Assembly (NCBI GenBank): GCA_004556545.1
Contig: SFGO01000003.1
Location: 5,121-69,120 of the forward strand
DNA from: Clostridiales bacterium
GTDB lineage: Bacteria; Bacillota; Clostridia; Christensenellales; Aristaeellaceae
Direction of reading: 5' to 3'
Length of the DNA stretch: 64,000 nucleotides
Below the pieces are notes generated by a model. It was not told the origin of the DNA. It did no database searches and saw nothing but the letters and a program-made list of their open reading frames with translations. The translations under genes were made by a program, and so were the position numbers. Every line of letters starts with the position of its first letter. Positions within the stretch are counted from its first letter, which is position 1. Shown piece by piece: positions 8,408-51,577 of this stretch.

Positions 8408-8484
<77 letters not shown>

Positions 8485-8488
8485 ACAT

Positions 8489-8565
8489 GGCTCCGTAGCT
8501 CAGCTGGCTAGAGCATTCGGTTCATACCCGGAGTGTCACTGGTTCGAATCCAGTCGGAGCCACCA
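8489..8565 (+). tRNA. tRNA-Met (anticodon CAT), probably elongator
   Basis: 77-nt cloverleaf. Acceptor GGCTCCG/CGGAGCC fully paired, anticodon loop TTCATAC. A lysidine-modified tRNA-Ile2 cannot be excluded by eye. Confidence 0.8.
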
Positions 8566-16808: not shown

Positions 16809-17084
16809 TTACTTGTTCACGCTGTCCTTCAGAGCCTTACCGGCCTTGAAAGCGGGAGCCTTGGAAGCGGCGATCTCCACAGCCTCGCCAGTGCGGGGGT
16901 TGCGGGCGGTACGGGCGGCGCGGTTCACCACTTCGAAGCTGCCGAAGCCTACAATCTGCACCTTTTCACCGGCGGTCAGGGACTCGGTCACGGTCTCGGT
17001 GAAGGCGGCCAGCACCTTCTCGGCGTCCTTCTTGGACAGAGCAGCTTTCTCAGCGATCGCATTTACCAGTTCAGCTTTATTCAT
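16809..17084 (-). CDS. hup: HU-family DNA-binding protein
   Basis: MNKAELVNAIAEKAALSKKDAEKVLAAFTETVTESL..GEKVQIVGFGSFEV..RAARTARNPRTGE is a canonical HU sequence. RBS AAGGAGGA. Confidence 0.95.
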   Translation of the reverse strand: MNKAELVNAIAEKAALSKKDAEKVLAAFTETVTESLTAGEKVQIVGFGSFEVVNRAARTARNPRTGEAVEIAASKAPAFKAGKALKDSVNK

Positions 17085-17123
17085 AGTAATATCCTCCTTA
17101 CATAGTTGGGGTAGCAGAATGGG

Positions 17124-17152
17124 AGTATAGCAAAACAAAATGCGGCTGTCAA
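17124..17152 (-). promoter_or_regulatory. hup promoter
   Basis: On the minus strand: TTGACA (17152-17147), 17-nt spacer ending in TGC, TATACT (17129-17124). Confidence 0.65.
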
Positions 17153-17387
17153 TGCCTGAACGCCTGAGTTAACAAAGATTCAGCCATTTTTTACGTATTT
17201 TGAGAGAGATTGGGGCATGTTTTTACTTATTTTACGGCAAAAAGCCCGTTTTTGGGGCATGGCATTTTGTGAAAGGCTCCTTCGGCAGGAGTTGAAGCGT
17301 CGGATGTCGTATTCCTTTCTGTAAGGGAAGAGAAAAATACGCCCGCTTTTTTGTCCGGGCGGTGAATGCTGATTCGGAGGAAGCCAT

Positions 17388-18098
17388 ATGGAAAAAGAAA
17401 AGAAAGTCCGGGAGGCGCTTTCGCTGGAAAGAGCGCTGATGGAACGGCTGAGCCAGTCGGAAATTCGGAATTGGCTGAAAAAATACGCCATGCCCTATCA
17501 GGAGCTGATGTCCTGCTACCGCTGCGCGCTGATGGAGGTAGAGACGAAGTTCAACGTGCTGGACGAGGAACTTTCCCTGCTGTACGACCGCAACCCCATC
17601 GAAAGCATCAAGTCCCGCATCAAGTCGCCGGAGAGCATCGTGGATAAGGCCGTGCGTAAGGGCATTCCCATGACGGTGGAGAGCATCGAGAAAAACCTGC
17701 GGGATATTGCGGGCCTGCGGGTCATCTGCGCCTTTCCCAGCGATATTTATATGCTGGCCGATGCGCTGCTTCGGCAGGACGATGTGACGCTGATCGAGCG
17801 CAAGGATTATATTCAGAACCCCAAGGATAACGGCTACCGCAGCCTGCATCTGATTATTGAGATTCCGATTTTTCTGCATAATCAGACCCGCCGGATGAAG
17901 GTGGAGGTGCAGCTGCGCACCATCGCCATGGACTGGTGGGCCAGTTTGGAGCACAAGATTCGCTATAAGAAGGATCTGACGAACGACGAGGCCATCTTCG
18001 CCGAGCTGCGGGAGTGCGCGGAAGTGAGCGCCCGGCTGGATCAGCGGATGCAAGGCATTCACGAAAAAGCGGAAAACGGGAAAAACTCTGTTTTGTAA
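17388..18098 (+). CDS. small alarmone synthetase (RelP/RelQ-type GTP pyrophosphokinase)
   Basis: IKSRIKSPESIVDK...DIAGLRVICAFPSDIY...NGYRSLHLII...EVQLRTIAMDWWASLEHKIRYK are the RelA/SpoT synthetase-domain motifs. No hydrolase or regulatory domains. 236 aa. Confidence 0.85.
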   Translation: MEKEKKVREALSLERALMERLSQSEIRNWLKKYAMPYQELMSCYRCALMEVETKFNVLDEELSLLYDRNPIESIKSRIKSPESIVDKAVRKGIPMTVESIEKNLRDIAGLRVICAFPSDIYMLADALLRQDDVTLIERKDYIQNPKDNGYRSLHLIIEIPIFLHNQTRRMKVEVQLRTIAMDWWASLEHKIRYKKDLTNDEAIFAELRECAEVSARLDQRMQGIHEKAENGKNSVL

Positions 18099-18117
18099 GC
18101 GAATTCTGATTTTGAAT

Positions 18118-18146
18118 TGACAGGACGGAAAGGCTATGGTAAGATA
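18118..18146 (+). promoter_or_regulatory. extended -10 promoter of the GRE activase/GRE operon
   Basis: TTGACA (18118-18123), 17-nt spacer ending in TGG, TAAGAT (18141-18146). Confidence 0.6.
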
Positions 18147-18155
18147 TTTTCGGCA

Positions 18156-18173
18156 TTATTAACGTTAACAATT
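18156..18173 (+). promoter_or_regulatory. 18-bp near-perfect palindrome (candidate operator) at about +4 to +21 of the GRE operon
   Basis: ATTATTAAC|GTTAACAAT has 17 of 18 positions symmetric, with a perfect core TTAACGTTAA. The central AACGTT resembles LacI/GalR-type operators. Confidence 0.4.
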
Positions 18174-18202
18174 TTGAGATTCAGAGAAAAGGAGGGAAGG
18201 CG

Positions 18203-19045
18203 TTGACGGGACAAGTCTTTGATCTGGAAGAATTCGCCGTGTACGACGGCCCCGGCATTCGCTATGCCGTGTTTCTCAAGGGCTGCCCGCTGCGCTGCCA
18301 CTGGTGCCATAATCCCGAGGGGCTTTCCGCCGCGCCGCAGATCATGGTTTCCCAGATGTGCGTCCATTGCGGAGCCTGCCGAAAGGTCTGCCCCTCGCCG
18401 GAGCGCTGCACGGGCTGCGGCGCATGCGTCGGCGTTTGCCCGGTCGGCGCGCGGCGGCTGTGCGGACGGGCAATGACGGCGGAGGCAGTGGCGGAAAAGA
18501 TTCGGCCCAGCCTGCCGGTTTTGCAGCTCAATGGGGGAGGCGTGACCTTCACCGGCGGGGAAGTACTGATGCAGCCGGATTTCGTGCTGGCGGTACGCGC
18601 CCTTCTGCCGGAAGCCCATGCAGCCATCGAGACCAGCGGCTATGCCCAGCCGGAGGTTTTTCAGCGGGTAGCGAAAGCCATGGATCTGGTCATCATGGAT
18701 GTCAAGCTGGCGGATCCGGCGCTGCACCGCCGGTGGACAGGGGTGGACAATGGGCCGATTCTGCGGAATCTGGACTGGCTGAAGAAAAGCGGTATCCCCT
18801 TCTGGATCCGGATTCCGCTGATCCCCACCGTGAACGACACCGAGGAAAACATGCGCCGGACAGCGGCGCTGCTTCAGGGCGCTGCCCGGCTGGAACGGGT
18901 GGAGCTGCTTCCCTATCACAAAACCGCCGGCGCGAAATATGCGGCGGCAGGGATGAACTACGATCCCGGCTTTCCCACCGGGCAGGAACCCCAAATTCAT
19001 CTGGAATCCTTTCAGGAGGCGAAAATACCATGCGTCGTGAACTGA
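18203..19045 (+). CDS. glycyl-radical enzyme activating protein (radical SAM, PFL2-type with two extra ferredoxin-like clusters)
   Basis: TTG start after AAAGGAGGG. Radical SAM motif CPLRCHWCHNPE (CX3CX2C). Additional cluster motifs CVHCGACRKVCP and CTGCGACVGVCP. 280 aa. Confidence 0.85.
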   Translation: MTGQVFDLEEFAVYDGPGIRYAVFLKGCPLRCHWCHNPEGLSAAPQIMVSQMCVHCGACRKVCPSPERCTGCGACVGVCPVGARRLCGRAMTAEAVAEKIRPSLPVLQLNGGGVTFTGGEVLMQPDFVLAVRALLPEAHAAIETSGYAQPEVFQRVAKAMDLVIMDVKLADPALHRRWTGVDNGPILRNLDWLKKSGIPFWIRIPLIPTVNDTEENMRRTAALLQGAARLERVELLPYHKTAGAKYAAAGMNYDPGFPTGQEPQIHLESFQEAKIPCVVN

Positions 19046-20946
19046 CCCCTCAGCGCTGGGAGGAAATTTCCCGGCAGATTCAAGACCCCGCCCTTCCGCT
19101 GGACGAACGGGCCGCTCTGCGGCTTCGGCTCTTTTTGGAGGAAGAGGACGCCGCGCCGGTGGATTCGCCCATTCCGCTGGCACGTTCCATCATCCGTTTC
19201 CCGGATATCTACGCCCCCGGCGAGGCCGAACGGCTGCGTCAGGGCTGCCATATTCATGAGCAGGGCCGGGTCTGCAACCTGAGCTCCGACTGGGAGGGCG
19301 TACTCCGGGGCGGCCTGCTGGCCCGCCGGGGTGCATCCCACGCGCAGGACGTCTGCGTGGACGCGGTGCTGGCCTTTGCCGACCGGCTGGAGGATCCCGT
19401 CCTGTCCCGCGCCGTCCGGAAGGGCGCGAAAACCTACCGGGAGGCGCTGTGCCTGCTGCGGCTTTTGCATTTCGTGCTCTGGGCCAGCAATACCTATCAC
19501 AATACGCTGGGCCGGTTCGACCAGTACATGTACCCCTACTATCAGGCGGATAAGCAAGCCGGAACGCTGACCGATGAAGAAGCCCTGCATCTGACGAAGG
19601 AATTCTTCCTGTCCTGCAACCGGGATAACGATCTTTACACCGGCATGCAGCTGGGGGACAACGGTCAGAGCCTGATGCTGGGCGGCTGCGACCGGGAGGG
19701 CCGCTGCGCCGTGAACGAGCTGACCCTTCTCTGCCTGCGGGCGGCGCTGGAAAACCGGCAGATCGACCCCAAGATCAACCTGCGGGTTGATCGGAACACG
19801 CCCCTTTCCCTGTACGAAAAGGGAACCGAGCTGACCCGTCAGGGTCTGGGCTTCCCTCAGTATGCCAACGACGACGTGGTCATTCCCGCGATGATCGCCA
19901 TGGGTTATGCGCCGGAGGACGCCAGAGACTATACCGTCGCGGCCTGCTGGGAGTTCATCATTCCCGGCAAGGGGATGGATATTCCCAATATCGGCGCGGT
20001 TTCGCTGGCGGACGTGGTCAGCCGGATGGTGCGGGAAAAGCTGGTTTCCTGCCACACGTATGAGGAATTCTTCGCGCAGGTGAAGCAGGAGCTTTTCCGG
20101 CGGGCTGACGAGCTGGAAGCCTCTTTGAAGCCGCTGTGGGTAGAGCCCGCGCCCTACCAGTCCCTGCTCATGAGCGACTGGCGGCAGGATATTTCGCTGG
20201 GCGCAAAGTACAACAATTACGGCATTCACGGCACCGGCTTCGCGACTGCGGTAGACCAGCTGGCCGTGGTGAAGAAGCTGATCTTTGAAGAAAAGTCCGT
20301 GACAAAGGAAGTCCTGCTGGCCGCCTTGGCGGATGACTTCGCGTCGGAGCCTGTCCTGCGGCGGACGCTGCTGGACGCGCCCAAGCTGGGCCGGGACGAA
20401 AGCTGCATTCCGCTGGCGGACGCGCTGCTGAGCGCCTTTGCCGATTCCTGGCAGGGCCGCCGGAACGAGCGGGGCGGCGTCTTCCGCGCCGGGACGGGCA
20501 GCGCCATGTATTACCTCTGGCATGGCCGGGAACTTCCCGCTACCTGCGATGGCCGCAGGGCGGGCGAGCCGCTGTCGGCCAACTTCACGCCGTCGCTGAC
20601 CTGCGGCAGTTCTCTGCCCCTGAGCGCCGTCCGCGCCATGGCCCGTCCGGGCCTGAACCGCGTCATGAACGGCGGCCCCCTGACGCTGGAGCTGCACGAT
20701 TCCCTTTTCCGCACGCCGGAGGGAACGCAGAAGACCGCGCAGCTGGTGCGCACCTTTATTCAGCTGGGCGGCCATCAGCTGCAGCTGAACGCCGTTTCGC
20801 CCGAAACGCTTCAGGACGCCATGCTTCATCCCGAAGCCCATCGGAACCTGATCGTCCGGGTCTGGGGCTGGAGCGGCCGCTTCGTGGAACTGGATCGGGA
20901 GTATCAGGATCAGATTTTACATCGGGTCTGCTACCGGCAGGAATAA
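19030..20946 (+). CDS. glycyl-radical enzyme, compact 638-aa PFL2/dehydratase-like form
   Basis: ATG 19030 after AGGAGG, overlapping the activase stop by 16 nt. Motifs: GFPQYANDDVVIP, Cys loop AAC306WE, ATCDGRRAGEPLS and the C-terminal radical motif LIVRVWG613WSGRFVEL. Confidence 0.8.
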   Translation: MRRELTPQRWEEISRQIQDPALPLDERAALRLRLFLEEEDAAPVDSPIPLARSIIRFPDIYAPGEAERLRQGCHIHEQGRVCNLSSDWEGVLRGGLLARRGASHAQDVCVDAVLAFADRLEDPVLSRAVRKGAKTYREALCLLRLLHFVLWASNTYHNTLGRFDQYMYPYYQADKQAGTLTDEEALHLTKEFFLSCNRDNDLYTGMQLGDNGQSLMLGGCDREGRCAVNELTLLCLRAALENRQIDPKINLRVDRNTPLSLYEKGTELTRQGLGFPQYANDDVVIPAMIAMGYAPEDARDYTVAACWEFIIPGKGMDIPNIGAVSLADVVSRMVREKLVSCHTYEEFFAQVKQELFRRADELEASLKPLWVEPAPYQSLLMSDWRQDISLGAKYNNYGIHGTGFATAVDQLAVVKKLIFEEKSVTKEVLLAALADDFASEPVLRRTLLDAPKLGRDESCIPLADALLSAFADSWQGRRNERGGVFRAGTGSAMYYLWHGRELPATCDGRRAGEPLSANFTPSLTCGSSLPLSAVRAMARPGLNRVMNGGPLTLELHDSLFRTPEGTQKTAQLVRTFIQLGGHQLQLNAVSPETLQDAMLHPEAHRNLIVRVWGWSGRFVELDREYQDQILHRVCYRQE

Positions 20947-21031
20947 GTTTTTTTTGAAAATCGGCGAACGCCCCGTTCGTGCCTTTCGGCGCGGATGGGG
21001 TGTTTGTTCTTTTTCCATGCAAACGCCGCCT

Positions 21032-29960: not shown

Positions 29961-31016
29961 CTACTTCTTTGCTTTTCGTTTGCCCGTGTAGGTCACGACG
30001 ATCCGCTGGATGCAGATGAACAAAAGCAGCAGGGCGCCGGTAGCGATTTTTCCCCACCAGGAGAGAAGATTGCCGTTAAAGGTAATCAGCGCCGGAATAA
30101 TGGATTTCAGCAGTACGCCGAACAGCGTGCCGATCATGTATCCCACGCCTCCGGTCAGCAGCGTGCCGCCGATGACCGCGCAGGTGATGACCTCCAGCTC
30201 GCCGCCCTGAAGGGCCAAATTCCAGCCGCTTTTCACATACAGGGCGTAGGCCACGCCCGCCAGCACGGAGCAGAAGCCGTTGAAGCCGTAAACCAGAATC
30301 TTGGTTTTTGCCACGGGCAAGCCCATCAATTTGGCGGACTGTTCGTTTCCGCCGATCGCGTATACGTTCCGGCCGAAGCGGGTTTTCTGCAGAAGCACAA
30401 TGCCTACCACGATCATGATCAGGAACAGGAGCAGATTGAAATTGATAAAGCAGATCGGCTTGATCTTCACCCACTCGCCGTCCTTCAGGTGCATGAAATA
30501 CACCTTCCATTGGGCCAGCGCGTCCATCATGGGGTGGGAAATGTTGATGGATTCCCGGCTGATCAGGGAGCAAACGCCCCGGGCCAGGAACATGCCCGTC
30601 AGCGTGGTGATGAAGGGCGGCACGTTCAGATAGTGGATGGTCGCGCCCATCAGCAGCCCCAGACCAACGCCGACCACCATGGCGGCCAGAATGCAGACCA
30701 GAGGGTGAAGACCCAGCACCGTATTGCCGTAGGCAATGAACATGCCCGTCAGCGACGCTACCGCGCCCACGCTCAAGTCAATGCCGCCGGTGATCAGCAC
30801 CATCGTCATGCCCACGGCGGAGATGCCGTAATAGGCATTGTCGATGAACATGTTCACAAAGGTGCGCAGGGTGGTGAAGCCCTTGGAGCCGTAGGCGACT
30901 GCGCCGAAGAGATAGATGATCAGGAAAATGCCGATGGTGGCGTATACCATGATATACTTGGGGTTCGCCGCCTTGCTCAGCAGGCTTTGCTTTTTCATCG
31001 TCTGTTTCTTAAGCAT
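29961..31016 (-). CDS. sugar ABC transporter permease (YjfF/YtfT-like, RbsC family)
   Basis: About 351 aa with 8-10 TM segments of the RbsC/AraH type. The start MLKKQTMKK lies 2 nt after the upstream stop. An alternative ATG is at 30998. Confidence 0.8.
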   Translation of the reverse strand: MLKKQTMKKQSLLSKAANPKYIMVYATIGIFLIIYLFGAVAYGSKGFTTLRTFVNMFIDNAYYGISAVGMTMVLITGGIDLSVGAVASLTGMFIAYGNTVLGLHPLVCILAAMVVGVGLGLLMGATIHYLNVPPFITTLTGMFLARGVCSLISRESINISHPMMDALAQWKVYFMHLKDGEWVKIKPICFINFNLLLFLIMIVVGIVLLQKTRFGRNVYAIGGNEQSAKLMGLPVAKTKILVYGFNGFCSVLAGVAYALYVKSGWNLALQGGELEVITCAVIGGTLLTGGVGYMIGTLFGVLLKSIIPALITFNGNLLSWWGKIATGALLLLFICIQRIVVTYTGKRKAKK

Positions 31017-31018
31017 AT

Positions 31019-32101
31019 TCAGGCGTCTCCCTTCACGGCTGCGGACATGCGGTCCTGACGGTTTTTGGCGCGCTTGGCGAACCATTCGCGGGCAGGCTCC
31101 GACTGAAGCACGATGACCACTGCGATAATCAGGGCCTTGAAGGCCATGGTGGCCTCGGATACGATGCCGAAATAATAGACGAAGGTGACGATGGTGCGGA
31201 TGATGATCGAACCGATGACCGTGCCAGCCAGACTGAATTTGCCGCCGGACATATTGGTGCCGCCGATGACCACTGCCAGAATGGCGTCCATTTCATAGTT
31301 CAGGCCGGCGTTGTTGGAATCGTTGCTCATGATGCGGCTGGAGTAGATCAGACCCGCAATGCCGCTCAGAAGGCCGGTCAGGGCGAAAACGATCAGGATC
31401 ACCGCCTTGGCGTTAATGCCGGACAGACGGCTGGCGCTGGGGTTGATGCCCACGGATTCCACCATGGTGCCGAACGCGGTTTTCCGCGTGAACAGCGCTA
31501 CGGCGGCCACCACAATGGCGGATATCACGATGGGCATCGGCAGGCAGAACAAGCTGCCCTGACCAATGAACCGGAAGGGCGTGTACAGCGTGGTAAACTG
31601 CTTGCCGTTGGTCAGAATCTGAGCCACGCCCCGGCCCGCCACCATCAGAATCAGGGTGGCGATAATGGGCTGCATGCCCACATTGGCGATCATCACGCCG
31701 TTAAACAGGCCCATCAGCGTGCAGACCGCCAGCGGCACCAGCAGCACCAGCACGAAGGGGTAAATGGTGTAGTCGCCGGGGGTCGGATAGGCGCTGACGT
31801 CCCACCGCAGGAATTTCAGCGCAATCGCGCCGGAAACCGCCACCAGCGCGCCCACGCTCAGATCGGTGCCGCCCAGAGCGATGACCAGCGTCATTCCCAT
31901 GGCGATAATGGTGATTTCCGCCGAGCGGTTCAGAATATCGATCAGACTGCCGTACAGCATGCCCGTGGTGGGCTGGTAGCTGATGGAGAAAAACTCCGGC
32001 CGTATGATAAAGCATACCAGCAGAATCAGCAACTCGGCAATCACCGCCCAGGTGATCTTGGAGCGCATCAGATCGGAAAGACTGAATTTTTTCTTTTTCA
32101 T
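31019..32101 (-). CDS. sugar ABC transporter permease (YtfT-like, RbsC family)
   Basis: 360 aa. ATGA overlap with the ATPase gene stop. RbsC-type membrane protein. Confidence 0.8.
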   Translation of the reverse strand: MKKKKFSLSDLMRSKITWAVIAELLILLVCFIIRPEFFSISYQPTTGMLYGSLIDILNRSAEITIIAMGMTLVIALGGTDLSVGALVAVSGAIALKFLRWDVSAYPTPGDYTIYPFVLVLLVPLAVCTLMGLFNGVMIANVGMQPIIATLILMVAGRGVAQILTNGKQFTTLYTPFRFIGQGSLFCLPMPIVISAIVVAAVALFTRKTAFGTMVESVGINPSASRLSGINAKAVILIVFALTGLLSGIAGLIYSSRIMSNDSNNAGLNYEMDAILAVVIGGTNMSGGKFSLAGTVIGSIIIRTIVTFVYYFGIVSEATMAFKALIIAVVIVLQSEPAREWFAKRAKNRQDRMSAAVKGDA

Positions 32102-33618
32102 ACCGCTTCTTCCCCTTCCTTCGCGCCTCCGGCGATGATGTTGAGAATGGTCTGCTGGGTGCAGCTTTCGCCGTCCACCTCGCCTACCTTTTCCCGGTCG
32201 CGCATGACCACGATCCGGTTGGAGCAGCGGATGATCTCATCCAGCTCGGAGCTGATGAAGATCACGGACACGCCCTCGCCGCACATTTCCAGCATCAGCC
32301 GCTGAATTTCGGCCTTTGCGCCCACGTCGATGCCCCGGGTGGGTTCGTCCAGAATCAGCACCTCCGGGTCGGTCGCCATCCAGCGGGCCAGAATGACTTT
32401 CTGCTGGTTGCCGCCTGAAAGCTCGCCCACCTTTTTTTCGGCGTTCGGGGTGGCAATGCCCAGAAGCTTGATGTATTTTTCCGCCAGCTCGCTTTGCTCC
32501 TGGTGGGACATGGGATGCATGAAGCCCTTGCGCGCCTGCACCGCCAGCATGATATTCTCGCGGATGCTCAAATCGCCGATAATGCCGTCCCGCTTGCGGT
32601 CCTCGGGGCAGAAGGCAATCCGCTTGGCGATGGCGTCGCAGGGCTCCCGGAAGCTGACCGGCTGCCCGTCCATGGTGATTTCTCCCGTAGTCGGATGGCC
32701 GATGCCGAAGAACATTTCAGCCGTTTCGGTGCGGCCGCTGCCCAAAAGCCCCGCAAAACCCATCAGTTCGCCTTTTTTCAGGTTCAGGGAAACACTGCTG
32801 ATAACGCCCGGAGCGCCGATCCGGCTGGCCGTCAGCGTATAGGGCGCGTCATCCGCTACTTCCGCCCGCTTCAGGTTGAAGATCACGTCCATGTCCTTGC
32901 CGATCATCTGCGTTACCAGCTCCAGCTTGCTGATCTCGCTGGCCTGGAAGGTGCCGATCAGATGACCGTTGCGCAGGATGGTCAGCCGGTCGGAAACGGC
33001 GAACACCTGATCCAGAAAATGGGTGATGAAGATGATCCCCATGCCGTCGGCCTTCAGCTCCCGCATGACCTCGAAAAGCAGCTGTACCTCGTTTTCATCC
33101 AGCGACGAGGTGGGCTCGTCCAGAATGAGGATTTTCGCCTGAATATCCACAGCCCGGGCGATGGAAACCATCTGCTGTATCGCCGTGGAGTAATAGGACA
33201 GCGGACGGGTAACGTCGATATCCAGATGAAAGCGGGACATCAGCGCCGCCGCCCGACGGTTCAGCTCCTTCCAGTCGATCTGATGGCGCTTCATGGGCTG
33301 ACGGCCCACGAAAATATTTTCCGCAACGGAAAGGTTCTGACACAGATTGACCTCCTGAAACACCGTGGAGATGCCCATTTTAATGGCATCCTGAGGACTG
33401 GTGGGAACGATTTCCTCACCGTCCAGCAAAATTTTGCCAGCGTCCATGTGATGAACGCCGGTCAGGCATTTGATCAGCGTGGATTTTCCTGCGCCGTTTT
33501 CACCCAGCAGCGCGTGAATTTCGCCCTTGTTCAGGGTAAAATCCACTTTATCCAACGCCTTTACGCCGGGGAACTGAATTTCGATCCCCTTCATTTCCAA
33601 AATGGCTTCCTGCGGCAA
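32098..33618 (-). CDS. sugar ABC transporter ATP-binding protein, duplicated ATPase (YtfR/RbsA/MglA type)
   Basis: TTG start after GGGAGG. Two nucleotide-binding domains: Walker A GENGAGKST, signatures LSGGNQQKV and ILILDEPT/VLILDEPTRG. 506 aa. Confidence 0.9.
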   Translation of the reverse strand: MPQEAILEMKGIEIQFPGVKALDKVDFTLNKGEIHALLGENGAGKSTLIKCLTGVHHMDAGKILLDGEEIVPTSPQDAIKMGISTVFQEVNLCQNLSVAENIFVGRQPMKRHQIDWKELNRRAAALMSRFHLDIDVTRPLSYYSTAIQQMVSIARAVDIQAKILILDEPTSSLDENEVQLLFEVMRELKADGMGIIFITHFLDQVFAVSDRLTILRNGHLIGTFQASEISKLELVTQMIGKDMDVIFNLKRAEVADDAPYTLTASRIGAPGVISSVSLNLKKGELMGFAGLLGSGRTETAEMFFGIGHPTTGEITMDGQPVSFREPCDAIAKRIAFCPEDRKRDGIIGDLSIRENIMLAVQARKGFMHPMSHQEQSELAEKYIKLLGIATPNAEKKVGELSGGNQQKVILARWMATDPEVLILDEPTRGIDVGAKAEIQRLMLEMCGEGVSVIFISSELDEIIRCSNRIVVMRDREKVGEVDGESCTQQTILNIIAGGAKEGEEAV

Positions 33619-33790
33619 GAAAATTCCTCCCTTGGATGGAATTACAGGGCGGTCAGACGTATCTGCCGCCCTGTAACGGAGGGAACCCTATTCCCACAGC
33701 CAAAGGGCTCCGACCTTTATCGCCCCGCAGCCCGAAGGTTCGGCGGGGTCAGGACACAGGGGCCGAAACCCCTGTGCCCTTGGTGAATCA

Positions 33791-34777
33791 TCAATACTTG
33801 CGCTCGCTGATCACGTCTTCCGCCTTGATGGAGGTGACGGTGCCCAGGTCGATGCCGCCTACGCAGTCGAATACGCCCTCAGCGGGATGAATGACTTCGC
33901 GGCCGAAGGTTTCGCCGTTCTCCAGGCCTTCGATGGTGGGAACCACGAAAGCGGAGTACAGGGGGTTGCACTCGACGGTGCAGTTCATCTCACCGGCAAC
34001 GATCGAGTCGAAAGCGGCCTTCACGGAGTCGCAGCCCACGATGATCACGTCCTTGCCGGGCACCAGACCGGCGGCCTTGATGGCGTCGATAGCGCCCAGA
34101 CCCATGTCGTCGTTCTGAGCGATCAGCACGTCGATCTTCTCCACGGACTTCAGCCAGCTCTCCATCAGAGCCTGACCTTCAGCACGGGTGAAATTGCCGC
34201 TGTTCTGCGCAACGACCTTCATGTTGGGGTAATCCTTCAGAGCGGCCAGATTGCCTTCGGTACGGCCAACCTGCGCGTCCGCGCCGGTGGTGCCTTCCAT
34301 GATGGCAACGCAGATTTCTTCTTCGCCGCGGCCCAGCGTCTTGAGGTATTCGCCGGCCCAGGCTACCTGACGGCGGCCTTCTTCAACGAAGTCACCGCCG
34401 AAAGCAGCGGCGTACTCGATCTTGTCGGCACAGTCGGGCATACGGTCGATCAGGATCAGGGGGATTTCCGCCTCGTTGACTTCCTTGAGAACCTCGTCCC
34501 AGCCAGTGGAAACCACGCCGGTGAACAGGATGTAGTCCACGCCCTGGGTGATGAAGTTGCGCAGGGCCTTCACCTGATTTTCCTGCTTCTGCTGAGCGTC
34601 GTCGTAGACCAGCTCCCAGCCTTCATGATTCTTGATGGCGTTGCAGATGTCGTCGGTGTTGGCGGTACGCCAGTCGGATTCCTGGCCGATCTGAGAGAAA
34701 GCGATGGTCAGCGCGGAAGCGCTGGACAGGCTCAGCACCAGAACCAGAGCCAGAACGACAGAGAACAGTTTCTTCAT
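33791..34777 (-). CDS. periplasmic-binding-protein-type sugar-binding protein (YtfQ-like) of the ABC importer
   Basis: Signal peptide MKKLFSVVLALVLVLSLSSASA. FSQIGQESDWRTANT...QQKQENQVKALRNFITQGVDYILF is typical of the YtfQ/RbsB type-I PBP fold. GGAGG RBS. Confidence 0.85.
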   Translation of the reverse strand: MKKLFSVVLALVLVLSLSSASALTIAFSQIGQESDWRTANTDDICNAIKNHEGWELVYDDAQQKQENQVKALRNFITQGVDYILFTGVVSTGWDEVLKEVNEAEIPLILIDRMPDCADKIEYAAAFGGDFVEEGRRQVAWAGEYLKTLGRGEEEICVAIMEGTTGADAQVGRTEGNLAALKDYPNMKVVAQNSGNFTRAEGQALMESWLKSVEKIDVLIAQNDDMGLGAIDAIKAAGLVPGKDVIIVGCDSVKAAFDSIVAGEMNCTVECNPLYSAFVVPTIEGLENGETFGREVIHPAEGVFDCVGGIDLGTVTSIKAEDVISERKY

Positions 34778-34947
34778 GAAATTCTTCCTCCTTCACTTTT
34801 GGGTTTTTCACCCGTTGATTCTTTTTTACCACAGGACGCGGCTGAAAAAAAGGAAGGGAATTTGGAAGTTGGTTGGGAATTTTCAGCGTGATGGGATTTG
34901 CTCAAAATAGAACGGCACAAACGGGAAATTTTTCCGAAAAACGGAAG

Positions 34948-36552
34948 TTATTTTCCGGCTCCCTCGTTTCGCTGCCCCTTTCGGTAGTCCCGGGGCGATA
35001 CGCCCACCTGCTTTTTGAATTGATAGCTGAAATAATGGGGGTCGTTATAGCCCACCGCGTCGGAGATTTCCGAGGTGCGCAGATCGGTGGAAGCCAGCAG
35101 CTCCCGGGCTTTGGCTACCCGCTGGGCCGTCAGGTATTCGGTAAAGGTGATGCCCATTTCCTGAGAAAAAACGGTGCAGAAATGGTTGTTGCTCAGGGCT
35201 ACATGGGAGGCCACGTCCCGCAGGGTGATGTTGGGGTCCGCATAGTGGCGGGCAATATAATCCTGCGCCTGATGGATGACGCTGCGATACCGGGCGCTGC
35301 CGTTCCGATCCCGGAAGCGAATCGCCTGTTCCAGAATGCCCCGGCAAAGTGCCATGGCGTTCTCCGGGGAAAGCTGCTGGTTTTCGACCCGGAACGCGCT
35401 GGGGATGACCTCCTGAGGTACGCCGCCGTTTTCCTGAATCACCTTGGAGGCAGCCTTCACCGCCTCTACAAAGAAATAATGAATCATGATAATGGACTGG
35501 GAGGCGCTTTCTCCGGCCGTGCGCTCATAGGCGCTGAGGATGGAGCCTACTTCCTCTGCTGACGCGCAGCGCAGCTGATCGGTCAGATCAAAGCTGTCCA
35601 TCCGTTCCACGGACAGGCCGCTTAAATCGGTGCTGGAATAGTCCTGCGTGCTCATGATGCGGTGCGCGCCGTCCCGGGCCGCTTCGCCCCGGAGCCGTTC
35701 CAGAATGACCTGAGCGCTGAAGAGGGATTTGGGCACTTCCTTCAGAACGGCCACATCGTCGCCGATGGCGATCAGGATCGTCAGGTTCAGATTGCGCTCC
35801 ACCTCGTACTGCACCGCCTGAGCCAGACCGTAGGCCCGTTCCTCCAGATCCTGAGCGCTGTCCCCCAGTACCAGAAATACAAAGCCGCCCCAACCCCGGC
35901 AGAGCTGCACCGTCCCGCCGCTGCCTTCCGTCAGCTGTTCCAGCACCGTCTGCACAGGCAGCAGCGCCGTCTCGTTTTCTTCTTCCTTCCTGAAACCCAG
36001 CAGCATGACCAGATAGCGATTGGCCAGCAGATTGACCTGCAGCGTCCGGGCACTTTTGAGGATGCGCTCGTCGTTGGCGCCGCCGTAAAGCTCCACCAGC
36101 AGCTTTTCCATCTGAAAGCGGCTGGTGGAGGCCGCCTGCTGCCGGTAGGCCGACAGATCCGCCTGATGGCGCTGCTCTTCCCGAATCTGCCGGGCAATCC
36201 GCTGAAGGACGTCCAGCAGATCCCGGCTGCTGACGGGCTTCAGCAGATATTCCTTCACGTTGAGCGAGATGGCCTCCCGGGCATAGGAAAAATCGTCGTA
36301 GCCGCTGAGAATGACGGTATGAACCCAGGGCATGGAGCGGGATACCTGACGGCACAGCTCCAGTCCGTCCATAAAGGGCATGCGGATATCCGTAATCAGA
36401 ATATCCGGCTTCACGTCCTGAAGCATGTTCAGGGCGATTTCCCCGTCGGGCGCTTCTCCCGCCAGTACGAATTCCGTCTGCTCCCAAGGAAAATTGGTGC
36501 GGATTCCCTCCCGTACGACGATTTCATCATCCACCAGAAACACCTTAAACAT
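34948..36552 (-). CDS. response regulator with an AraC-type output domain (YesN-like)
   Basis: MFKVFLVDDEIVVREG...DILITDIRMPFMDGLEL...LKP forms a receiver domain. The C-terminal AraC HTH is ...LSNNHFCTVFSQEMGITFTEYLTAQRVAKARELL...GYNDPHYFSYQFKKQVGVSPRDYR. The ATG overlaps the kinase stop by 8 nt. Confidence 0.9.
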   Translation of the reverse strand: MFKVFLVDDEIVVREGIRTNFPWEQTEFVLAGEAPDGEIALNMLQDVKPDILITDIRMPFMDGLELCRQVSRSMPWVHTVILSGYDDFSYAREAISLNVKEYLLKPVSSRDLLDVLQRIARQIREEQRHQADLSAYRQQAASTSRFQMEKLLVELYGGANDERILKSARTLQVNLLANRYLVMLLGFRKEEENETALLPVQTVLEQLTEGSGGTVQLCRGWGGFVFLVLGDSAQDLEERAYGLAQAVQYEVERNLNLTILIAIGDDVAVLKEVPKSLFSAQVILERLRGEAARDGAHRIMSTQDYSSTDLSGLSVERMDSFDLTDQLRCASAEEVGSILSAYERTAGESASQSIIMIHYFFVEAVKAASKVIQENGGVPQEVIPSAFRVENQQLSPENAMALCRGILEQAIRFRDRNGSARYRSVIHQAQDYIARHYADPNITLRDVASHVALSNNHFCTVFSQEMGITFTEYLTAQRVAKARELLASTDLRTSEISDAVGYNDPHYFSYQFKKQVGVSPRDYRKGQRNEGAGK

Positions 36553-38002
36553 GGCCCGTCCTCCTGACCGGCACCCGGAAGGAAACCACGGTTCCCCCTG
36601 CCGGATCGCTTTCAATGTGCAGCCCGTCCGGCTGATTGTAGTACAGCTTGATGCGCTTGTTGACGTTGAACAGCCCATAACCGGCGCTGCCCTGCCCGTC
36701 GCCTTTCAGCCCCCGGCGCACCTGTTCCAGATGCTCCGGCGTCATCCCCGCGCCGTCGTCCTTCACGCTGAAATGAAGCCATTTGTTTTCCTCCCACACG
36801 GAAATGCGGACCGTTCCCTTTCCCCGGCGGTTTTTGATGCCGTGGTACAGGGCGTTTTCCACCAGAGGCTGCAGAAGCAGCTTCAAAACCTCCTGAGGAT
36901 ACAATTCCTCCGGAATATCGATTACATAATTGAGAATGTCCCGGTAACGCACCTTGAGAATGGTCAGGTAGCCGGTCAGATGGCGCACCTCATCGGCCAG
37001 CGTGATCCAGTCCTTCCCCTGACTTAAAGAAATTCGGAAAAAATCAGACAACGCCCGGGTGATGGCGATGACCTCGTCGGACTCGTCCGACTCCGCCAGC
37101 CAGATAATCGCGTCCAGCGTATTATAAAGAAAATGCGGGTTGATCTGCGACTGAAGGGCGCGAAGTTCGCTCTTTTTCAGGTTTTCCTGCTCCCGGCGGT
37201 TTTCGTCGATCAAATCCTGAAGACGGCCCGCCATCGTATTCAGGCTTTCCGTCAGGTCGTGCAGCTCCTTCACCTGCGTTTCCGGGGCGCGCGCGTCCAA
37301 ATCGCCTCCCGCCAGCGCCCCGGCGAAGGTTTCCAGCTGAGCGATGGGTTTATGAATGGCCTGAGCCAGCGAACGCTGGGCCTGAACGGCAAACAGCAGC
37401 GTCAGCCCCAGTAAAAGCAGCAGCGCCGCCACGACCGCCGTCAGCGTATGGTTCAGATACCGGCTGGTCAGAGCGGCGGCGCTGATTTCCGCGTCCGCGT
37501 ATTCCTCCAGCATTTCTCCCACCAGCGCGGAAACGTTGCGCACCTCCTCCCAGAGCGCTTCGCTCTGGGCCACGGGCTGCTCGGTTCGCATCAGCTCGCC
37601 GATACTGTCCACATACTGCCGCAGCGTATGCATGCTGCGCCGCGCCACCAGCAGCTCCTTCTGGCTGTCCTGCTGGGCGGAACGGGCCAGCGCGTCGATT
37701 TCCTCCTGAATGGAGTCCATCAGGGCGTATTGGCTGCCTTCCTCAAAGGTGATGTGGCCCGCCACGATATACCAAACCTCCCGGGGAATCTCCTGCCGAA
37801 CGATGGGCTTCAGGGCGGATACCCGCTCCACCCGCTGAATGACCCCGTGATAGCTGCGGGAATAGACCGCCATCATGCTGACGCTGACCAGCGCGGGAAT
37901 GACCAAAAGGCCGATGAGAATCAAAAAAGAGATTTTCAGCCGCTGAATAATGCTGCTGTTATTGTTCAAACGAGACAGCGCGCGTTCCATAAACTTCTGC
38001 AT
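36545..38002 (-). CDS. sensor histidine kinase, LytS/YesM type
   Basis: Two TM segments, a HAMP region, the His_kinase motif LRALQSQINPHFLYNTLD and an HATPase N-box LLLQPLVENALYHG. The start MQKF is at 38002, 1 nt after the upstream stop. Confidence 0.9.
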   Translation of the reverse strand: MQKFMERALSRLNNNSSIIQRLKISFLILIGLLVIPALVSVSMMAVYSRSYHGVIQRVERVSALKPIVRQEIPREVWYIVAGHITFEEGSQYALMDSIQEEIDALARSAQQDSQKELLVARRSMHTLRQYVDSIGELMRTEQPVAQSEALWEEVRNVSALVGEMLEEYADAEISAAALTSRYLNHTLTAVVAALLLLLGLTLLFAVQAQRSLAQAIHKPIAQLETFAGALAGGDLDARAPETQVKELHDLTESLNTMAGRLQDLIDENRREQENLKKSELRALQSQINPHFLYNTLDAIIWLAESDESDEVIAITRALSDFFRISLSQGKDWITLADEVRHLTGYLTILKVRYRDILNYVIDIPEELYPQEVLKLLLQPLVENALYHGIKNRRGKGTVRISVWEENKWLHFSVKDDGAGMTPEHLEQVRRGLKGDGQGSAGYGLFNVNKRIKLYYNQPDGLHIESDPAGGTVVSFRVPVRRTGHV

Positions 38003-38003
38003 T

Positions 38004-38984
38004 TCAGTATCCTCTTGGAAGAAGCGAGTCCAAATCGCTGTCAAATTCCGAAAAAACCCGTTCCTGCGGATGCGTCACCCTTGGAATTTCCTCCCCGGCG
38101 GCCAGCCGCTTGCTCAGCTCCATGATCGTATCCCCGATCATGGGGGTGCATTCCACCACGCAGTTGATCTGCCCCTTGCGAAGCGCGTCTATGGCGGCCT
38201 GCTCGCCGTCTACGGAAATAATCACGATGTCTTTTCCCGGCTGAAGCCCCGTCTCCTCGATGGCGGTGATCGCCCCCAGCGCCATGGCGTCGTTATGGGC
38301 GTACAGCACGTCGATCCGTTCGCAGGTTTCCAGCAGCTCCTTCATGCATTCCCGGCCCTTTGTGCGCAGAAAATCCCCGGAAACGCTTTGAATGATCTGC
38401 AATTCCGGATGCCCCTCGAGCGCCGCCCGGAAGCCCTCGCCCCGCTGGCACATCGGCGTGGAATCGATGGTGCCGGACAGCTCCACGATGCGCACGTCCG
38501 TCTGGCCTTTCATTTTTTGCAGCAGAAATTCTCCCGCGCTGACGCCCTCCTGAAAAAAATCCGACCCGATAAAGCCTGCGTACAGGCTTTCGTCCTCAGT
38601 ACGGATCATGCGGTCGGTCAGCAATACGGGGATCCCCGCCTCCTTCGCCTCCCGGAGCACATTGTCCCAGCCCGTCTCCACCTTGGGCGAGAAGGCGATC
38701 ACGTCCACCTGATAGGCGATAAAGGAACGGATGTGCTTGATCTGCTCCGCCTGCTTCTGATTCGCGTCCAGATACATCAGCGCCACGCCGGCTTTTTCCG
38801 CGGCCTCCTGAATGGAACGGGTATTGCCCAGCCGCCAGGCGCTTTCCGCGCCCAACTGTGAAAAGCCCAACAGCAGCGCGGGCGAAGCGGACGCTGGCGC
38901 ATCGTCGGGCCGGGAAGCGGTACAGCCGCACAAAACCATCGGTATCAGTAGAAGCACAGCCGCCAGACGAAACGTTTTTTTCAT
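38004..38984 (-). CDS. lipoprotein sugar-binding protein (YtfQ-like paralogue), sensor partner of the two-component system
   Basis: Lipobox MVLCGC in MKKTFRLAAVLLLIPMVLCGCTA. GFSQLGAESAWRLGNT...QKQAEQIKHIRSFIAYQVDVIAF parallels the transporter SBP at 33791-34777. Confidence 0.8.
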   Translation of the reverse strand: MKKTFRLAAVLLLIPMVLCGCTASRPDDAPASASPALLLGFSQLGAESAWRLGNTRSIQEAAEKAGVALMYLDANQKQAEQIKHIRSFIAYQVDVIAFSPKVETGWDNVLREAKEAGIPVLLTDRMIRTEDESLYAGFIGSDFFQEGVSAGEFLLQKMKGQTDVRIVELSGTIDSTPMCQRGEGFRAALEGHPELQIIQSVSGDFLRTKGRECMKELLETCERIDVLYAHNDAMALGAITAIEETGLQPGKDIVIISVDGEQAAIDALRKGQINCVVECTPMIGDTIMELSKRLAAGEEIPRVTHPQERVFSEFDSDLDSLLPRGY

Positions 38985-39235
38985 GGCCGGGATCAACGTC
39001 CTTTCCTGAGGTCCTTTTCGGAAAAAGCAAACCGATTTATCTTTTTTGCGCGTGGAATTTGCTTTTATTATAACGAATCTCCGCCGCCTGCGCAAGAAAA
39101 TTTCGCAGCAATGCAAAAATGACGCTGTTTATATCGAAATTGGCAAGACGACGGTTCGATTCGATAGGCGTTTGCTTTGGCAGCGCCGTGCCGTTTTCCG
39201 CACAGCACTCGTTTTTCTTCTTCTTGACCGTTCGT

Positions 39236-46871: not shown

Positions 46872-46943
46872 ACAGGTACGTCATTGATGATACGCCATGT
46901 CCTCGTAGGGCGTACCGATGAACCATGTAAGGAGGAAACAAGA

Positions 46944-48065: not shown

Positions 48066-48089
48066 GGTTTGCTGAAAATCGAATCGCCG

Positions 48090-48117
48090 CCGCCGGGAGA
48101 AATCCCGGCGGTTTTTT
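48090..48117 (+). terminator. intrinsic terminator of msmX
   Basis: CCGCCGGGA-gaaa-TCCCGGCGG followed by TTTTTT. Confidence 0.85.
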
Positions 48118-48223
48118 AGCGCTCTGAAAAAGCGCCGGGCAGCGTTTCCAAGCCGTTGACAAGTCCCCGAAATCCTGCTATTCTTCCCCGGGAACGACAT
48201 CGTAGAAAGGCGGAAGAATCCCC

Positions 48224-49216
48224 ATGGCAGCAAGACCCACCCTGAAAACCGTGGCGCAGGCGGTCGGCGTAACGGCCAATACAGTTTCGCTGGCGCTGCG
48301 CGGCTCCCCACTGGTGGCGGAAAAAACCAAAACCGCCATTCTGGCCGAGGCACGCCGTCAGGGCTATCAGCATGACGCGGCGGCGCAGGCGCTTCGCTGC
48401 GGCCGGAGCCGGGTGATTGCGCTAGCCTTCGGCGATATTGCCAATCCGCTTTTTGCCATCAAAATCAAGCTGCTGGCTCAGCAGTTCGCCCAAGCCGGAT
48501 ATGAAACTTTGATCCTGAACACCGACGAAGCCGAAGAAACGGAGGTCAAGGCCATCCGCACTGCCCTGAGCCGCAAAGTGGAGGGCGTGGTGCTCTGCCC
48601 CTGCCAGAAAGGCCGGGAGGCGCTGGAGCTGCTCCACGGTCAGGGCGTACCCTGTGTACTGATTGGCCGTCAGTTTGACAGCCCGCAGGAGGACGCGGTG
48701 GTCTGGGACGACCGGCGGGGCGGCTATCTGGCCACCCGGCAGCTGCTGGAACTGGGCTGCCGTCAACCTCTGTATCTGACCGCCGCCCCCAGCATTTCCA
48801 GCGCCCGCCTGCGCTTGGAGGGCTTCCGGCAGGCGCTTGAGGAAGCGGGAATGCCGGAAAACGGGCTGGTGCGGGAGGTATCCCCGTTGGGGGACGATCT
48901 GGGCCGACTGCTGGATACGCTTCCCAAAGAGACGGACGGCGTGTTTGCCTTCAACGATCTGCTGGCGTGGCGGCTGATGTGCATGCTGAAACGCCCTCTG
49001 CCGGTGGTGGGTTTCGACGATATCCAGTCCGCGCTGGCCGCGCCCATCCCGCTTTCTTCCATTCACAGCGATCTGGAAGAGGAAACCCGGCTGACCGCCC
49101 GCCTTTTGCTGGAGCGAATCGAGCAGCCGGAACGCCCGTTGCAGACGCTGGTGATGCCCGTTTCTTTGACGGTGCGGGATGCATGGGAAAATGAAAAAAC
49201 GACAGGCAGCCGTTGA
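48224..49216 (+). CDS. LacI-family transcriptional regulator
   Basis: N-terminal HTH TLKTVAQAVGVTANTVSLALRGSP.VAEKTKTAILAEARRQGY, followed by a periplasmic-binding-protein-like core. 330 aa. Confidence 0.85.
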   Translation: MAARPTLKTVAQAVGVTANTVSLALRGSPLVAEKTKTAILAEARRQGYQHDAAAQALRCGRSRVIALAFGDIANPLFAIKIKLLAQQFAQAGYETLILNTDEAEETEVKAIRTALSRKVEGVVLCPCQKGREALELLHGQGVPCVLIGRQFDSPQEDAVVWDDRRGGYLATRQLLELGCRQPLYLTAAPSISSARLRLEGFRQALEEAGMPENGLVREVSPLGDDLGRLLDTLPKETDGVFAFNDLLAWRLMCMLKRPLPVVGFDDIQSALAAPIPLSSIHSDLEEETRLTARLLLERIEQPERPLQTLVMPVSLTVRDAWENEKTTGSR

Positions 49217-49241
49217 CAGCTCTTTCAAAAAATGATAAGAT
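49213..49241 (+). promoter_or_regulatory. extended -10 promoter driving the small-peptide transcript
   Basis: TTGACA (49213-49218), 17-nt spacer ending in TGA, TAAGAT (49236-49241). It overlaps the lacI-family stop codon. Confidence 0.55.
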
Positions 49242-49307
49242 ATGCTTGCAGTTAAACAAAACTAACCGCAAGTGTTTTTCTTTGGACAGGCGAATGGAGG
49301 CAGAGCA

Positions 49308-49400
49308 ATGGCAAAGCGCATGCTGAAAAGAAAACTGACGGGACTGGGCTGCACCGCGGCGCTGATCGCTGTAGGCTGGCTGATTTCCAACTGCCTGTAA
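49308..49400 (+). CDS. 30-aa small hydrophobic (single-TM) peptide; too short for the ORF track
   Basis: ATG 49308 lies 7 nt after GGAGG. It encodes MAKRMLKRKLTGLGCTAALIAVGWLISNCL: a basic N-terminus followed by about 18 hydrophobic residues. It is bracketed by a promoter and a strong terminator. Confidence 0.4.
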   Translation: MAKRMLKRKLTGLGCTAALIAVGWLISNCL

Positions 49401-49411
49401 GGCAGAAAGAA

Positions 49412-49456
49412 GGCCGCTTTTTCCGAACGGATTCATCGGAAAAAGCGGCCGTTTTG
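49412..49456 (+). terminator. strong intrinsic terminator after the small ORF
   Basis: Perfect 15-bp stem GGCCGCTTTTTCCGA / TCGGAAAAAGCGGCC, 9-nt loop, then GTTTTG. Confidence 0.8.
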
Positions 49457-49512
49457 ATCTTTGAAGGGCAGCCGAAAAACGGAAAAAAAACACTTTCTCC
49501 GGCCTTTTTCTA

Positions 49513-49541: not shown

Positions 49542-49550
49542 ACACGCATT

Positions 49551-49598: not shown

Positions 49599-49613
49599 AA
49601 GGAGGGTTTCATC

Positions 49614-51573: not shown

Positions 51574-51577
51574 GACT

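Follow-up and report, generated by a model that had tools for sequence, protein, structure and literature searches.

The 64-kb stretch of contig SFGO01000003.1 from a Clostridiales bacterium (hereafter the window) encodes, next to each other, a radical S-adenosylmethionine activating enzyme (activase) and a compact glycyl radical enzyme (GRE). About two dozen GRE reactions are known, and whole clades without function or annotation were stressed in a June 2026 review (PMC13450708). Judged by its sequence, the window pair belongs to an uncharacterized clade of compact GREs that has a signature of its own.

A compact glycyl radical enzyme and its activase

The ORFs (open reading frames) of the activase and the GRE overlap by 16 nt (table 1); a predicted promoter lies 58 nt upstream of the activase start, and a terminator-like hairpin closes the two-gene unit ahead of gerA at 21071. 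The activase carries a CX3CX2C motif (CPLRCHWC) and two ferredoxin-type four-Cys motifs, CVHCGACRKVCP and CTGCGACVGVCP, all read directly; it passed TIGR02494 (PFLE_PFLC) with 267.9 bits against a cut-off of 174.35, and PF04055 and Fer4 were matched as well. In the GRE, PF02901 (238.2 bits) and PF01228 (55.7 bits) both scored above their gathering scores; residues 274–286 read GFPQYANDDVVIP, the motif ATCDGRRAGEPLS is also present, and Cys306 and Gly613 are 307 residues apart. An original prediction made from the letters of the window had described this gene order with its overlap, the Cys306-X-Glu308 motif, Gly613, and the 307-residue spacing, all of which we could confirm in the sequence. 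A longer ORF of 862 aa, from a GTG at 18358 to 20946, was rejected as a high-GC artifact in which the GRE frame extends back across the activase gene; its extra 224 residues are rich in Arg, Ala, and Gly and have no similarity to GREs.

Table 1. Features of the gene pair and its candidate regulator, in window coordinates (GD, glycerol dehydratase)
Feature	Position	Strand	Description
Predicted sigma-70-like promoter	18117..18145	+	TTGACA-17 nt-TAAGAT with TG before the -10 box; consensus scan, 10/12 matches
Perfect palindrome TTAACGTTAA (extended TATTAACGTTAACA)	18159..18168		Between -10 box and ribosome binding site; candidate LacI-family operator
GRE-activating enzyme (activase)	18203..19045	+	TTG start, AGGAGG 8-9 nt upstream; 280 aa; radical S-adenosylmethionine enzyme
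Compact GRE	19030..20946	+	ATG start, AGGAGG upstream; 638 aa; 71.7 kDa
Cys loop AAC306-W-E308-F	19939..19956	+	From translation; predicted thiyl-radical Cys and Glu of the Cys-X-Glu motif; aligns to GD Cys433/Glu435
Glycyl radical motif R610-V-W-G613-W-S-G	20857..20877	+	From translation; aligns to GD RVAGYS
Intrinsic-terminator-like hairpin	20964..21007	+	20 pairs, then a T-run; 18 nt past the GRE stop; consensus scan
LacI-family regulator	48224..49216	+	PF00356 and Peripla_BP matches; candidate trans-acting repressor of the pair

The GRE had been estimated to be some 130–200 residues shorter than PFL2-type enzymes, which agrees with the 149 residues that it lacks in comparison with GD. In HMMER alignments, about 77 of the missing residues are N-terminal, about 42 would follow strand beta-1, and about 30 belong to loops: window residues 1–51 correspond to GD 1–128 (a difference of about -77), residues 52–95 to 129–177 (-5), residues 96–123 to 178–247 (about -42), and residues 124–633 to 248–783 (-26). 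The Cys loop is found at residue 306 instead of GD 433 because the residues upstream of it have been trimmed.

The short length is common to the family. The 120 best matches among 5.8 billion proteins are all 635–675 aa long and cover the full query at 62–100% identity; when 1.84 billion representatives at 50% identity were searched, the family was followed by dozens of clusters of 610–740 aa, and canonical GREs of about 790–800 aa turn up only after these, at 33–37% identity. A six-frame tblastn search of positions 17000–19129 with the N-terminal 260 residues of each of 28 long GREs yielded chance-level matches only, and dN/dS between the window GRE and its 93%-identical ortholog (L086) is 0.105. 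On these three grounds we rejected a truncated pseudogene, which had been raised as a way in which the original prediction could fail: the orthologs are about 640 aa long rather than about 800, with no N-terminal remnant upstream. An AlphaFold2 model of the GRE, based on a 38-sequence alignment, reached a pLDDT of 90.9 and a pTM of 0.91. In Foldseek comparisons with GD, CutC, propanediol dehydratase (PD), PflD, HypD, and others, its TM-score was 0.83–0.89 when normalized to the query and 0.62–0.73 when normalized to the target, and all GREs among the 50 best matches are at least 764 residues long. In the model the barrel is thus complete, with about 150 residues trimmed.

Profile searches place the GRE close to known enzymes, yet not among them. 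It scored 260.8 bits against TIGR01774 (PFL2/glycerol dehydratase subfamily; residues 130–634 against profile positions 247–783), for which the cut-off is 678.2; by this measure it is related to the curated subfamily and lies outside it. The NCBIfam equivalogs for PflD-type enzymes, HpfG/HpsG, HypD, CutC, and the indoleacetate and 4-hydroxyphenylacetate decarboxylases gave at most 222.4 bits against cut-offs of 1000–1150, and the YjjI model (TIGR04040/DUF3029) was absent from the Pfam and NCBIfam matches of the GRE at E ≤ 0.01. Identity to solved structures is 18–24%; the best sequence match among these is GD 1R8W (E-value of 3e-65 with the single sequence and 1e-126 with the family profile), followed by PflD, CutC, and PD. 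The claim of a genuine, intact, compact PFL2-like GRE with an activase of its own, outside the characterized GRE clades, therefore holds.

Signature and distribution of the compact clade

We aligned 38 family members with 34–93% identity to the window GRE. RVWGWS is near-invariant (37/38), with R610, V611, W612, G613, and S615 at least 90% conserved and W614 invariant; Cys306 and Glu308 are likewise at least 90% conserved, and the segments AACWEF, GFPQYxNDD, GR(F)DQY, and FR486xGTGS are invariant or nearly so. We define the compact clade by a length of about 610–710 aa together with R[VI]WGWS, AACWE[FY], GFPQYxNDD, and FRxGTGS with its invariant Arg; all these features are present in the window GRE and in 37 of the 38 aligned members. 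The RVWGWSG motif, taken for atypical in the original prediction, is in fact the signature of the compact family. It also lies within the published GRE fingerprint RVxG[FWY]x6-8[FL]x4Qx2[IV]x2R (PMC13450708), which the window sequence RVWGWSG-RFVELDREYQDQILHR fits fully (RVWGW-SGRFVE-L-DREY-Q-DQ-I-LH-R), so that RVWGW is unusual only with respect to narrower patterns. The ATCDGR variant, which the same prediction had listed beside it, is indeed present, but it is local to the lineage: its Cys is not conserved, and relatives carry ATADGR, ATPDGR, or ALADGH.

In the 150 top-ranking representatives at 50% identity, we found R[VI]WGW in 25 full-length clusters, usually accompanied by AACWEF, and R[VI]WGF in 35, usually accompanied by SACWEP. 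Taken together, the Trp before the radical Gly and the Cys-Trp-Glu loop therefore mark a larger compact super-clade. The RVWGF/SACWEP sister clade (P0160–P0249) is the next-nearest group, at 31–36% identity, and seems to be uncharacterized as well; it is also compact (640–815 aa, median of about 698) and shares the Trp before Gly and the Cys-Trp-Glu loop, but differs by a Phe rather than a Trp after the Gly and by a Pro rather than a Phe after the Glu. It should be noted that one family member, P0148 (657 aa), retains neither the catalytic Cys (AAGSCF) nor the Gly motif (VCVRDW), and may be a pseudo-enzyme or a decaying copy.

To describe the distribution of the clade, we scanned one genome per GTDB species with family-derived patterns, and all locus counts given here refer to loci among the matches listed. 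This gave at least 80 loci, each encoding a full-length relative with 37–65% identity, in Bacillota, Bacteroidota, Spirochaetota, Planctomycetota, Verrucomicrobiota, Kiritimatiellota, Chloroflexota, Acidobacteriota, and Proteobacteria. Of 75 sequences of sufficient length (the window GRE and those of 74 loci), 73 carry R[VI]WGWS. Since certain canonical GREs likewise match the second search pattern, the scan total of 597 confirmed relatives does not measure the size of the family. The clade is common in gut, rumen, and digester metagenomes, and its named carriers include Acetatifactor aquisgranensis DSM 110981 and a metagenome-assembled genome (MAG) of [Clostridium] symbiosum. Although the clade is large and extends over many phyla, its members are annotated in the source records solely under generic pyruvate formate-lyase names.

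Gene neighborhoods and a candidate LacI operator

Species-level neighbors were annotated by homology to Pfam-checked references. An activase gene is found within 1.5 kb of the GRE in 71 of 79 species loci. The genes for transport and regulation that lie within 400 bp are those of major facilitator superfamily (MFS) sugar porters (12 loci), CUT2 components (8), AraC (7) and LacI (6) regulators, and GntR regulators with a periplasmic-binding-protein domain (2); enzymes at this distance are the glycoside hydrolases (GH) GH51 (5 loci), GH78 (3), GH36-like (2), and GH127 (1), and an aldose 1-epimerase (1). Of the 133 flanking sides, 48 (36%) have a carbohydrate marker within 400 bp; in control windows taken from the same loci at more than 4.5 kb from the pair, the share is 17.7%. 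The binomial p of about 3e-7 is rough, given the phylogenetic relatedness of the loci and the overlap among control windows. Linkage to GH51 or GH127 occurs in five separate GRE subclades from four phyla, which favors repeated recruitment over one ancestral inheritance.

The closer homologs, 63–68% identical to the window GRE, illustrate these arrangements. In P0108 and P0095 a LacI gene is divergent from a CUT2 monosaccharide ABC transporter that is followed by activase–GRE; in P0017 it is divergent from GH51 alpha-L-arabinofuranosidase–activase–GRE; and P0027 has the order LacI–activase–GRE–GH127 beta-L-arabinofuranosidase. P0026 (Clostridia) combines a CUT2 system, a fucose-isomerase-like isomerase, an FGGY kinase, a class II aldolase, LacI, activase, and GRE, and P0120 and P0055 are orphan pairs. 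The isomerase–kinase–class II aldolase trio is found again beside MFS–activase–GRE in a Bacteroidales genome (L017, 3783–7716); the aldolase of both trios is of the class II fructose-bisphosphate type. The best NCBIfam match of the L017 isomerase is the sulfoquinovose isomerase SftI, far below the cut-off, and a sulfatase gene follows directly after the GRE in this locus.

Further contexts were seen in small numbers of loci. In three Chloroflexia MAGs (L054 and L056, both at 5–9 kb, and L076, at 6–9 kb), activase–GRE is directly preceded by same-strand genes for two to three URO-D/MtaA-like methyltransferases and a corrinoid protein that binds B12, and these in turn follow a CUT2 ABC transporter for sugars, a context that hints at methylated substrates. 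In the Bacteroidota loci L010 (12016–12501), L012 (12025–12582), and L078, the GRE stop codon is overlapped or adjoined by a gene for an MDP-1-like HAD phosphatase (PF12689). A split transketolase, a Zn-dependent alcohol dehydrogenase, and an aldehyde dehydrogenase are encoded near the pair in L016, and in L044 (4590–9000) two GRE–activase pairs stand back to back, the compact GRE and a second GRE that is 22% identical to it.

The view that the window GRE lacks pathway context is thus correct for its local neighbors, but not elsewhere, as about 80 species-level loci point to carbohydrate uptake and utilization. Nor is its substrate beyond the reach of context, as had been concluded: the comparative loci suggest a carbohydrate, and the window promoter shares the LacI-type palindrome TTAACGTTAA. 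The palindrome is kept in the 93% ortholog. In the 64-kb window it has a single match, which is not significant by itself (at least one copy occurred in 36% of shuffles). Across all loci, exact copies number 7 against 1.7 expected, and TTAACGTTAA, TTAACGATAA, and TTATCGATAA, which are the same or near-identical palindromes, head LacI-encoding GRE operons in L087, L015, L024, L013, L041, L042, L001, and L003. The LacI-family protein of the window is 46% identical to the LacI divergent from the CUT2–activase–GRE operon in L001 and L003, and 34–41% identical to seven other GRE-adjacent LacI proteins. We infer that the orphan pair of the window is part of a LacI regulon, probably as a LacI-repressed operon. 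Another LacI-type operator, distinct from the TTAACGTTAA class, was observed in the [Clostridium] symbiosum MAG (L027), where the palindrome AAAACGTTTT occurs four times (8701, 8763, 12091, and 12154) flanking activase–GRE and a GH78 gene. No riboswitch or other RNA element was found upstream of the pair; at gathering thresholds, Rfam gave only seven tRNAs in the window, namely a cluster of five (1532–1929) and a pair (8408–8562).

Upstream of the pair lie an HU gene and, directly adjacent, a gene for a RelQ/SAS-type small alarmone synthetase (PF04607; 17388–18098); a gerA-type operon, an acyltransferase-like gene, and SipL follow downstream. The ortholog L086 has the same gene arrangement, including the alarmone synthetase. 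Because the pair's own promoter sits in the gap between them, cotranscription with the alarmone synthetase is not required. GerA and SipL are sporulation genes. On the minus strand, the genes at 29961–39116 are those of a CUT2 ABC transporter for monosaccharides together with a histidine kinase of the YesM/YesN type, a response regulator of the AraC type, and a sensor-like binding protein. The CUT2 system (29961–34777), which is not an ortholog of the GRE-linked ones, together with this two-component system, was considered as the missing partner of the pair and rejected, since its binding protein is only 28% identical to those of GRE operons; it resembles that of a second, unlinked system in L077. 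Positions 46884–57544 encode an MsmK-like ABC ATPase, the LacI regulator, a glutamine synthetase, and the large and small subunits of glutamate synthase. The glutamine synthetase ORF has 494 aa when read from a TTG, about 50 aa more than its 443-aa homologs, and its true start is therefore probably located downstream. Matches of this glutamine synthetase place the source organism, an uncultured member of the Clostridia, only near Aristaeellaceae, Candidatus Fimadaptatus, or Christensenellales-type Clostridia.

Proposed chemistry, alternatives, and known systems

A Cys-X-Glu motif is kept in every characterized GRE eliminase or isomerase, in which the Glu bonds and deprotonates the substrate hydroxyl and so promotes the heterolytic loss of a vicinal leaving group (PMC13450708). 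As the window GRE keeps this motif, it is probably a 1,2-eliminase or isomerase that acts on a hydroxylated substrate, with a chemistry modeled on GD, PD, CutC, YbiW, and PflD. As established for GREs in general, the activase would reductively cleave S-adenosylmethionine and abstract a hydrogen from Gly613, and the Gly613 radical would in turn generate a thiyl radical on Cys306. The latter would take a hydrogen from the hydroxyl-bearing carbon of the substrate while Glu308 deprotonates the hydroxyl; from the resulting ketyl-type radical the neighboring C-O (or other C-X) group would leave, after which Cys306 would return a hydrogen to the product radical.

For the substrate, the active site of GD offers a comparison, in which we take His164, His281/Ser282, Tyr339, Asp447, and Tyr640 to be the relevant residues. 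In the family-profile alignment, the catalytic Cys433 and Glu435 of GD are kept and the rest of its pocket is replaced: His164, the proposed general acid, corresponds to Asn83 of the window GRE, His281-Ser282 to Tyr156-His157, the Tyr339 loop (GGYPMYQN) to GDNGQS, Asp447 to Asn320, Gln636 to Arg486, and Tyr640 to Gly490. The conserved polar residues of the pocket are Asn83, His157, Asp210, Asn211, Gln213, Asn320, and Arg486. With the Tyr339 loop lost, Tyr640 changed to Gly, and these polar residues in place, the predicted pocket would fit a substrate larger and more polar than glycerol.

On the reading that we favor, with a probability of roughly 0.55, the pair is a functional, self-contained GRE system, and the GRE a Cys-X-Glu radical eliminase or isomerase that acts on a carbohydrate-derived substrate, comparative gene context making a carbohydrate the best guess. 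This substrate is most likely neutral and imported by the sugar transporters. The single likeliest molecule would be L-arabinose, or a close relative, as released by the GH51 and GH127 arabinofuranosidases, although any one molecule must be named at long odds. Several observations weigh against this reading. L-arabinose has a well-known catabolic route that is not radical-based, which leaves the need for a radical step unexplained, and the invariant Arg486 could be a sign of an anionic substrate. In a coarser test, carbohydrate markers were not enriched at 0–3 kb relative to 6–9 kb (16 vs. 13 of 30 loci), the enrichment being confined to directly adjacent genes; as the genomes are sugar-rich, adjacency alone is weak evidence and the carbohydrate link is to be taken as moderate rather than strong. 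The window neighbors (small alarmone synthetase and ger operon) are unrelated, and the same holds for the neighbors of two other close homologs. The glycosidases beside the pair vary by locus (GH51, GH127, GH36-like, GH78), so that the compact family may lack a single function, and the solute-binding proteins are only generically RbsB-like, with nothing in PDB or NCBIfam but generic RbsB, allose, or YtfQ-like matches below the cut-offs.

The sugar genes could also be explained if the GRE were a dehydratase of small diols or aldehydes (ethylene glycol, glycolaldehyde hydrate, 1,2-propanediol, or glycerol) downstream of sugar fermentation, coregulated with these genes since an aldolase would produce its substrate in cleaving pentose- or deoxyhexose-1-phosphates. 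We consider this unlikely, but worth keeping in mind: GD is the best sequence match, the isomerase–kinase–class II aldolase trio, a layout yielding dihydroxyacetone phosphate and a C2 or C3 aldehyde, is found in two phyla, and in one locus an aldehyde dehydrogenase gene lies directly upstream of the activase. The pocket argues otherwise, with GD His164 changed to Asn and the substrate-contacting Ser282, Asp447, Tyr339, and Tyr640 all replaced, the change of Tyr to Gly and the lost Tyr339 loop suggesting a larger rather than a smaller cavity. In addition, the neighborhoods show no recurrent genes for a lactaldehyde reductase, a CoA-acylating aldehyde dehydrogenase, or a microcompartment shell, and sugar importers and regulators are the commonest immediate neighbors. 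Rather improbable, too, is a substrate that is anionic or not a sugar and accompanies the arabinosides of plant cell walls, such as a compound related to hydroxyproline from extensin arabinosides, a uronic or branched acid sugar, a sulfo-sugar, or a sugar methyl ether that would undergo methanol elimination. Here the position of the invariant Arg486 at GD Gln636, the sulfatase and SftI-like isomerase of L017, the URO-D methyltransferases and corrinoid protein upstream of activase–GRE in the three Chloroflexia loci, and the fact that GH127 enzymes are known for hydroxyproline-linked beta-L-arabinosides would fit. Each such context is limited to few loci, though; none of the equivalog models for HypD, HplG, IslA, and HpsG comes close to its cut-off, and the transporters, namely sugar-porter MFS proteins (XylE-like, 375 bits for TIGR00879) and RbsB-like CUT2 systems, are typical of neutral monosaccharides.

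Two readings that stay close to the database entry and to the length of the gene carry very little weight. That the pair is a decaying or N-terminally truncated remnant without function is most improbable: the deficit of about 150 residues relative to characterized PFL2-type enzymes and the missing Cys and Gly of P0148 would suit such a remnant, but the short length is family-wide, the low dN/dS and the empty search upstream speak against it, the modeled barrel is complete and confident, and the activase is intact, with a predicted promoter and terminator. A true pyruvate or other 2-ketoacid formate-lyase (PFL), as the names "pyruvate formate-lyase" and "formate C-acetyltransferase" in the source annotations and the PF02901 match would have it, can practically be dismissed. 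These names derive from the domain match only, TIGR01255 scores 35 bits against a cut-off of 994.2, and PFL 1h16 was matched with an E-value of only 6e-10; moreover, PFL-type chemistry needs an adjacent Cys-Cys pair and is ruled out by the Cys loop, in which a single Cys is followed by Trp-Glu.

The recurrent siting of the pair by arabinofuranosidases and sugar importers suggests that the anaerobic catabolism of plant glycans includes a radical step missing from current pathway maps. A bolder version, which we hold to be doubtful, is that the clade performs a new radical step directly on a free plant monosaccharide, likeliest L-arabinose or arabinofuranose, by C-O elimination or ring-opening isomerization. 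If true, this would give anaerobes of many phyla in gut, rumen, and sediment a way into pentose catabolism that is independent of oxygen and spares ATP, and the Trp-Gly-Trp radical loop with the trimmed N-terminus would represent a new architectural subclass of GREs. The shared candidate LacI operator and the cultured carriers make the hypothesis directly testable (Clostridium symbiosum being represented here by a MAG). At 71.7 kDa, the GRE is also smaller than the typical 80–100 kDa (PMC13450708) and could therefore serve as a minimal scaffold for mechanistic work and engineering.

Full-text literature searches and the 2024–2026 bioRxiv preprints on GREs returned nothing on a compact RVWGW clade, and none of the characterized GREs in the June 2026 review is compact or carries the RVWGWS motif (PMC13450708). 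The claim to novelty made at the outset accordingly stands, for a clade that is widespread, uncharacterized, and trimmed. Among the described systems, YjjI/YjjW (TIGR04040/TIGR04041) is similar in combining a GRE of less than usual length and no known function with a dedicated activase. The lineages differ, the window activase scoring 134 bits against the YjjW cut-off of 250, and assignment to the YjjI family was rejected on profile scores. CutC (5FAU) is likewise a Cys-X-Glu eliminase and reaches a TM-score of 0.87–0.89 on the query, but the window GRE scores 203 bits against TIGR04394 (cut-off 1050), has an Asn at the position of CutC Asp216, and lacks a cut or microcompartment context.

Closest to the window GRE by sequence and fold are GD of Clostridium butyricum (1R8W/1R9D) and PD (5I2G, 9RCO), which share with it the 10-stranded barrel, the Cys-X-Glu loop, the GRFDQYMYPYY and GFPQY/NDD-type motifs, and the C-terminal glycyl radical domain, and with the window pair an activase with two auxiliary ferredoxin-type clusters. 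Identity to these enzymes is only 21–24%, RVWGWS stands in place of RVAGYS, and the window pair has neither diol/aldehyde pathway genes nor a microcompartment nearby. The only precedent for GRE chemistry on carbohydrates comes from YbiW and PflD (8ID7, 8ID0, 8YJO), which are C-O lyases of 1,5-anhydroglucitol-6-phosphate and 1,5-anhydromannitol-6-phosphate and the sole characterized carbohydrate-acting GREs. They have about 765–810 aa, and their substrates are 6-phosphates derived from phosphotransferase systems (PMC13450708), whereas the compact clade has importers of the ABC and MFS types as partners and, in most cases, no kinase. PflD retains a His at the position of GD His164, where the compact family has Asn, and the window GRE scores 222 bits against the PflD model NF007437, for which the cut-off is 1109. 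As in the window family, a Cys-X-Glu motif is combined in YbiW and PflD with a carbohydrate gene context, and PflD is the second-best profile match of the window GRE (E-value of 3e-125).

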